This document shows positions 7,947 to 8,367 of a stretch of 64,000 nucleotides of DNA, in pieces; position 1 is the first letter of the stretch; every line of letters starts with the position of its first letter. A program made the translations under genes and the position numbers. The notes below the pieces were generated by a model. It ran no database searches, was not told the origin of the DNA, and was given only the letters and a program-made list of their open reading frames with translations. Source of the DNA: Octopus vulgaris (taxonomy: Eukaryota); contig OX597818.1 in assembly GCA_951406725.2 (NCBI GenBank), positions 94,550,001 to 94,614,000 of the forward strand, given 5' to 3'.

Positions 7947-8367
7947 TAGCAGCTGAAATATGTGACAAACATATTTCAAGTAACTTAAATTGTAATTATA
8001 CATAAACACTGCTTAGCGCATTTACTCCGATATTTTTCTCAATTGGGTGATCTGCTAGCACAAATCAGTCAATGTGTTGGCTGAATTATATATAAAGCTT
8101 ATAAGCTTTGTCAATTTGTTCAGGGTTGCCCCTCACATCTGATTGACAAGAGTTAACAAACTTGAAATATCAATGTCTCAGATTCCCAAGAGAGGGTGAC
8201 ACTGAACGAACAGGGTGTTTTCACACCTTTTTACCATAAGAGAGAATTTTTCTCCATGGTAATTGCAGTGTATTTGCCTTTAGCAGTTGAAATATGTGAA
8301 AAACATATTTCAACTAACCTAAATTGTGATCATATGTAAAAACTGCTTAGCGTATTTACTCCCATAT
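7947..8367 (+). mobile_element. Retrozyme-like or Penelope-related non-autonomous unit: 334-bp monomer plus 87-bp terminal direct repeat
   Basis: 7947-8033 and 8281-8367 are ~87-bp direct repeats (tagcag.tgaaatatgtga.aaacatatttcaa...actgcttagcg.atttactcc.atat). The interior has several hairpins and a hammerhead-like motif. Confidence 0.6.
8137..8183 (+). ncRNA. Decayed type I hammerhead ribozyme motif
   Basis: Stem I ATCTGA (8137-42) / TCAGAT (8178-83); core TTGACAA versus CUGANGA; stem II GAGTT-AACA-AACTT; GAAA at 8164-67; short stem III T-ATCAAT-G; GTC cleavage triplet at 8175-77. Deviations from the inferred ideal motif are C>T or G>A transitions. Confidence 0.55.

Follow-up and report, generated by a model that had tools for sequence, protein, structure and literature searches.

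Non-LTR retrozymes of animals have been described as non-coding units of 150–450 nt with a GC content below 50% and no LTR (Cervera and de la Pena 2020, PMC7229834), and tandem units with at least two consecutive hammerheads have served as the criterion for an active retrozyme (Li et al., bioRxiv 10.64898/2026.07.22.740005). Penelope elements have been proposed as their mobiliser (PMC7229834; Li, Clavereau and Pollet 2026, bioRxiv 10.64898/2026.07.22.740005), a case made so far from co-occurrence and phylogeny, with the mechanism stated to be open. Penelope insertions have a described footprint of partial tandems, an inverted 5'-truncated copy and a 30–40-bp tail at one end (PMC8557442). In the window, by which we mean the whole 64,000-nt stretch of Octopus vulgaris DNA analysed here, positions 7947..8367 hold what we consider quite likely to be an old retrozyme copy, probably dead, whose family was spread by machinery of the Penelope type. 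The retrozyme-like reading of the initial annotation stands, while a Penelope footprint, an snRNA-type promoter and a LINE target site had escaped it. The layout is that of known animal retrozymes; judged from sequence, what appears to be new is the LINE target, the predicted promoter and a U3-A8 hammerhead core that Penelope elements resident in the genome also have. The footprint lies here on the copies themselves, and the rare core variant is found also in autonomous elements with many intact frames. Our literature searches yielded no account of this family, of cephalopod hammerheads or retrozymes, or of Tx1 elements or other LINEs that target retrozymes, although supplements could list the family; the main text of an octopus repeat annotation (PMC13282606) mentions neither ribozyme nor hammerhead.

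Two genome searches, with 40 candidates scored in each, returned 1989 and 1786 first-look candidates. This family size of about 2,000 candidate copies agrees with the earlier description of a multicopy, non-coding hammerhead unit of retrozyme size. The consensus unit of 341 nt (GC 0.39) has no long frame, its longest stop-free stretches being 49 aa on the ribozyme strand and 93 aa on the opposite strand, and a search of the unit for a rolling-circle ORF found none. Like the animal non-LTR retrozymes described to date, it is non-coding, 39% GC, free of LTRs and highly self-paired, with a type I hammerhead that has a 6-bp stem I, a 4-bp stem II and a palindromic stem III. Unlike them, its copies are dispersed and span 0.3–1.9 units without long arrays, its core is of the U3-A8 type, and the Penelope footprint is visible on the copies. 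Copies are circularly permuted, as the initial annotation had suggested checking, and no array of at least three units was seen among 65 loci. Against 60 dinucleotide shuffles, circular folding gives z = -5.9 for the window copy and z = -10.5 for the family consensus; the consensus folds equally well in its minus-strand form (z = -10.9), so the strand is not settled by folding. Divergence from the consensus is 3–19% (median 9.5%) among the 63 copies long enough for measurement, which makes the sampled family old, and the window copy is itself old and ordinary for its family. Contigs of public sequencing runs also contain pieces of the family, more than 1000 in each of three runs (three organism codes) and 11 in a fourth. 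One such contig returns after 344 nt and another holds 2064 other letters near the LINE site; neither informs on circle, start or strand. Two consecutive hammerheads occur in the layout of L307, L308 and the LINE-split L022, and the window copy has one. Two further copies on different contigs (L009 and L025) are near-identical including their flanks, a likely segmental duplication.

The insert at 7947..8367 (forward strand, as are all features given below) is the sole family copy within the 64-kb window and spans 1.26 units, as initially proposed, with the unit reduced to 334 nt after indels and an 88% identity to the family consensus. A weak match extends back to 7928, and the 5' end may lie at about 7931, within a TG/TA microsatellite. 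The terminal redundancy consists of 87 nt (unit positions 1–87) at 7947..8033 and again at 8281..8367. The 334-nt offset between them is as first noted, but the recurrence that had been called exact is an identity of 76/87. The second copy stops at the long 3' end of the family (position 87) and is followed by a short AT repeat; its last 33 nt (8335..8367), between the fixed 3' ends 54 and 87, form an optional tail resembling the Penelope tails of PMC8557442. The hairpins listed in the initial annotation are present, as is the 16-nt palindrome at 8094..8109, which is a 15-nt hairpin in the family and is perfect here only through a private 1-nt insertion. Elsewhere in the window (1–64000) we found no further copy of the family, second retrozyme family, Penelope element or LINE. 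The window also has 10 open frames of at least 130 aa, which by eye are mostly microsatellite- or repeat-derived.

The type I hammerhead topology reported at 8137..8183 is indeed present in the sequence. Stem I pairs 8137-8142 with 8178-8183, the U3-A8 core occupies 8143-8149, stem II 8150-8163, the GAA 8164-8166 and the stem III palindrome 8167-8176, and the predicted cut falls after 8177. Stem I would be prolonged by a long distal extension with its 5' arm at 8115..8134 and its 3' arm at 8189..8211, a helix paired in 88% of cells over 43 copies. In the 43-copy alignment 90.3% of cells are paired, a level that none of 500 shuffles reached. At one position of stem I, 30 copies have a C-G pair and 8 a G-C pair; doubly changed pairs, 8 in all, are no more numerous than in shuffles (105/500), and a single event may account for the swap in stem I.

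Among 30 copies picked by similarity, the core reads U3-Y4-G-A-C-A8-A, with U3 in all 30, A8 in 29, and position 4 occupied by C in 18 and T in 12. Over 43 rows, some of them selected by core pattern, the 3-8 pair is U3-A8 in 42 and U-G in one. The U3/A8 pattern has 59 genomic matches against 0 for a reversed control, and a C3/G8 pattern with identical stem III has none genome-wide. The core is intact in the window copy, which departs from the consensus at 11.1, at 15.2, at one stem III palindrome base and at one loop II base; contigs of three public runs have the consensus base at these sites and no change at 3 or 8 (40% threshold). The proposal that four reversions would restore a CTGACGA core is thereby overturned: copy tallies, genome pattern counts and public-run contigs together lead us to reject the canonical-core reversion. 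A family consensus without the CUGANGA core had been named in advance as grounds for abandoning the hammerhead interpretation, and such a consensus is formally what we find. The ribozyme reading nevertheless survives, because the consensus core is that of a known natural U3-A8 covariant reported as active in vitro (PMC3088659) and known from Schistosoma Penelope elements (PMC4209133). For C4, a reduced in vitro activity of another hammerhead has been reported (PMC3088659). Hammerhead searches that require CUGANGA would miss this 341-nt family, and the Infernal-type model check that had been suggested gave no match to Rfam hammerhead models at E<=10, either for the window copy or for a copy 96% identical to the consensus. 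Inspection of the consensus showed no minus-strand hammerhead.

As previously suspected, stem III is of the palindromic dimer type. It is a perfect 10-nt palindrome in the consensus and broken in the window copy, with predicted self-duplex energies of -12.9 and 0.0 kcal/mol, respectively; dimer folding through a palindromic stem III has been described for animal hammerheads (PMC4209133). With a single ribozyme and a broken palindrome, the window copy is likely unable to release a unit, and its predicted ribozyme unit is likely dead, as the initial annotation had thought probable. The family resembles Schistosoma Cercyon (Cervera and de la Pena 2014, PMC4209133) in its U3-A8 core and dimer-type palindromic stem III, and Penelope-like-element hammerheads as described in that paper in its opposite-strand pairs 100–700 bp apart. 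It differs from these in that the unit around the motif has no ORF, the stems are of canonical size and the distal part of stem I is long.

A U1/U2-type (Pol II snRNA) promoter is predicted within the unit. In 41 of the 45 U1 and U2 genes of the genome, a common element lies 56–61 nt upstream. A matrix built from 8 representative U1/U2 sites and anchored on a motif picked by eye has its best site in the unit at position 114 (window 8060..8073), a score equalled in 6 of 2000 shuffles of the consensus and 1 of 2000 of the window copy. The implied start, inferred from the median element-to-start spacing in the 41 genes, is position 176 (window 8122), about 60 nt past the element, and is an A as in U1 and U2. 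One U1 promoter agrees with the unit in 14 identical letters, and both have a similarly spaced AT-rich box; as read from the sequences, the box lies at 8087..8096 in the window copy, with a spacing from the element similar to that in the U1 gene L285. A U6-type Pol III promoter was considered and rejected: by eye, U6 upstream regions lack the U1/U2 motif, and runs of T occur inside the unit. Newt satellite 2 is a known case of an snRNA promoter (PMC2220036), and the family is like that satellite, by description only, in being a hammerhead repeat of about 330 nt with an internal snRNA-type Pol II promoter (Coats et al. 1994, as cited in PMC2220036). Newt satellite 2 differs in being tandem, with a canonical core (PMC7229834).

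The family copies have the insertion footprint of Penelope elements: 5' truncation, partial tandems, inverted arms, a tail and microsatellite targets. The 65 distinct loci have 96 arm ends, 43 of which fall at positions 44–63 and 27 at 73–94, with modes at 54 and 87, and a microsatellite follows 46 of the 71 ends lying at positions 44–94. The two fixed 3' ends are thus 33 nt apart, and the 5' ends are scattered over the whole unit. In many loci a second, inverted and 5'-truncated arm is joined head to head. Twenty such pairs have two terminal ends, and the tail is on one arm in 13, on neither in 7 and on both in none; this asymmetry is no more than suggestive, given that about two both-tail pairs are expected by chance and that 3 of the 20 pairs involve a self-match of the hairpin in the unit. 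Craig et al. 2021 (PMC8557442) likewise describe partial tandems, an inverted 5'-truncated copy, a 30–40-bp tail and (TA)n targets for insertions of Neptune, Naiad and non-autonomous Penelope-like elements such as Chlamydomonas MRC1. The spread of the 5' ends removes the fixed termini of a TRIM or LTR element that the initial annotation had raised as an alternative. It also argues, with the lack of terminal inverted repeats, against a TRIM, MITE or satellite monomer carrying a chance hammerhead look-alike. The missing Rfam match is what speaks for such a monomer. The conservation of the core positions, of the covarying 3-8 pair, of the palindromic stem III and of a compensatory stem I change, along with a second family that has the same layout and a canonical core, leaves this the least credible of the alternatives considered here.

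Penelope elements resident in the genome have the same core type and 3' end anatomy as the family. There are 6136 GIY-YIG candidates, many in 781-aa frames, and the one tested comprises an RT with a C-terminal GIY-YIG. Among 30 sampled loci, 21 contain near their 3' end a match to a U3-A8 hammerhead-like pattern that presets the core and includes a palindromic stem III; each of these 21 ends in (TA)n, 5 of them with an additional tail. The features in common between the family and these autonomous Neptune-type elements are therefore the core type, the (TA)n ends and an optional tail of 30–40 nt. The U3-A8 hammerheads and 3' anatomy of these autonomous elements, of which 30 of 6136 candidates were examined, are also what would be expected if the unit were the orphan end (pseudo-LTR) of a further autonomous Penelope family and its copies the 5'-truncated remains. 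We regard that origin as improbable, since 5' of the ribozyme the copies re-enter the unit with no ORF, the only common upstream sequence found is an inserted LINE, and the unit has its own match to an snRNA-type promoter. DNA similarity of the unit to the 30 sampled loci does not go beyond a 29-nt match (E = 0.016), so that no partner was found among them of the kind with which MRC1-type elements are described as sharing 3' sequence (PMC8557442). The Neptune-type family at L192-L221 is abundant, with many 781-aa open frames, and looks recently active; its minimal U3-A8 hammerhead-like motif has the cut triplet GUU or GUA.

We propose that the family spread by Penelope-type machinery in a cycle that would begin with the predicted U1/U2-type promoter, from which Pol II transcription would start about 27 nt ahead of the catalytic core. 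In transcripts of a copy with two ribozymes, pairing through the stem III palindrome would allow one unit to be cut out and closed to a circle. A Neptune-type Penelope RT-endonuclease would then nick (TA)n, prime on the RNA at position 54 or 87 and copy over a distance that varies and often exceeds one turn; it may also prime a second, inverted arm. Rolling reverse transcription has been proposed earlier (PMC4209133). A 341-nt template with two fixed priming points would make the poorly understood Penelope insertion reaction testable.

The template for this copying was probably a circular RNA. The copy L308, which has the predicted promoter and two ribozymes, begins at position 95 and thus ahead of the predicted start. 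A linear transcript from a similarly long copy could not regenerate this layout, but a circle could. This favours rolling reverse transcription, on few copies, although L308 could be a DNA-level duplication; the 1.26-unit window copy could derive from a circle or, through a linear transcript left uncut, from a longer copy. The latter origin leads to an unlikely but serious competitor that dispenses with the circle altogether: the templates of the Penelope RT would be linear and partly uncut RNAs from longer tandem masters, which would make the redundancy an ordinary pseudo-LTR overlap. A master like L308 would yield a linear RNA long enough for a 1.26-unit copy, and partial tandems are described as general in Penelope elements (PMC8557442). 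Linear copying from the predicted start, however, never restores a promoter before the first ribozyme, such as L308 has; no master of at least three units was seen among the 65 loci; and related animal retrozymes are reported to form circles (PMC7229834).

Four copies have a common foreign upstream sequence joined at position 185, which proved to be a LINE 3' end; the domains of this LINE are endonuclease, RT and zf-RVT. An autonomous parent in the upstream sequence was rejected on this finding. A LINE query that contained no unit sequence showed the 17-nt target at the 3' junction in 27 of 30 loci (including the query's own locus), and two of the remaining three adjoin a second hammerhead family. 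At the LINE 5' end, the family target precedes in 21 and a second-family-type target in 7 of 30 loci, as judged by eye. The unit up to position 201 precedes the LINE 5' ends, giving a 17–19-nt duplication of the target 185–201, and only the target stretch lies between tandem LINEs. LINE-bearing copies are scattered over the family tree and a single clade is rejected (AU p = 8e-5, with 13 truncated rows of 77 left out and a poorly resolved tree). Insertion of the LINE immediately 5' of the ribozyme has occurred repeatedly, in independent events. A single insertion amplified by hitchhiking was rejected as the sole origin on 19 label changes in 19 rows (shuffled mean 16.7) and the AU test; hitchhiking may explain the LINE copies without an upstream unit. 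The target site is empty in the window copy (8130..8141), with a 6-nt deletion after 8134. Short deletions at this site in the window copy (8134-8135), L003 and L019 could be scars of endonuclease nicking.

That unit positions 185–341 and 1–87 follow the LINE 3' ends in most loci, several of which have no upstream unit within 8 kb, might suggest that the unit is itself the 3' end of the Tx1/L1-type LINE or a SINE moved by it. The two-sided junctions and the AU test largely refute this very improbable origin: the unit up to position 201 lies before the LINE 5' ends, and tandem LINEs are split by the duplicated stretch alone. Sister LINEs also occur in another repeat and at U2 genes, and the family has its own ends in (TA)n with inverted arms.

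We provisionally take the LINE to be a Tx1 element on its resemblance and target specificity; homologue and PDB searches returned no named relative. The Tx1-clade features sought, an AP endonuclease, an RT, a C-terminal zinc-binding region and a fixed target with duplication, are all present. LINE 3' ends with about 76% identity to the retrozyme-targeting LINE adjoin the first base of U2 snRNA genes (L247 and L254, 1-1500). In 341-nt family copies, the LINE 3' junction is 8–10 nt past the predicted start, and the duplication keeps stem I of the downstream ribozyme. The upstream target copy often has a C found in one of 43 family rows, which suggests an inherited LINE leader. Like Tx1L in Tx1D, Keno in U2 and Tx1-Mar in Mariner-N4 (Kojima 2015, PMC4494074), this is an APE-RT LINE at a fixed site in a multicopy element, and it has the tandem insertions and possible transcription from the target described there for target-specific Tx1 LINEs. 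It is unlike those described in that paper in that the target is a hammerhead retrozyme, entered at or 8–10 nt past a predicted snRNA-type start.

The second retrozyme-like family (L162-L191, e.g. L172:1500-1740, as well as L117, L118, L121 and L122) has a circularly permuted 361-nt unit, a canonical hammerhead core, a near-palindromic stem III and 1159 candidates. Its copies have two fixed 3' ends into (TA)n and inverted arms, and Rfam gives Hammerhead_HH9 at 13.6 bits (E = 0.76). The promoter match is weaker than in the 341-nt family (71/2000 shuffles), with the implied start at the LINE junction. A third hammerhead repeat, with a U3-A8 core, lies in the first 300 nt of L210, on the strand that does not carry the Penelope frame, and has 72% similarity over 79 nt to the second family.

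In the proposed cycle, the Tx1/L1-type LINE would land in the transcribed unit, past the promoter and ahead of an intact ribozyme. A wider reading, which we put forward tentatively and rate somewhat below an even chance, is one of parasites in three layers. A hammerhead circle with an snRNA promoter would have descended from Neptune-type Penelope ends, hence the common U3-A8 core, and would enter (TA)n by rolling reverse transcription; Tx1-type LINEs would be specialised for the starts of these circle units and of U2 genes. The LINE would draw its promoter and 5' leader from the target, and cleavage of its RNA by the downstream ribozyme about 50 nt past the LINE 3' end would leave target sequence to guide a further insertion. 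The position between promoter and ribozyme offers a natural test of how target-specific LINEs get their RNA ends.

Further LINE arrangements were seen. A different LINE-like 3' end meets the unit at position 174–175, the predicted start, in L146 and L150; there it precedes the main LINE and lies immediately before 1500-1745. L112 (G000:C12:48713600-48723400) has three partial units with an inverted head, and two target sites in succession are each occupied by a LINE. Three loci (L097, L098 and L113) carry, at the usual LINE target site, a 2-kb internally deleted LINE derivative made of the 5' end, an ORF1-like piece and the 3' end, probably a non-autonomous family.
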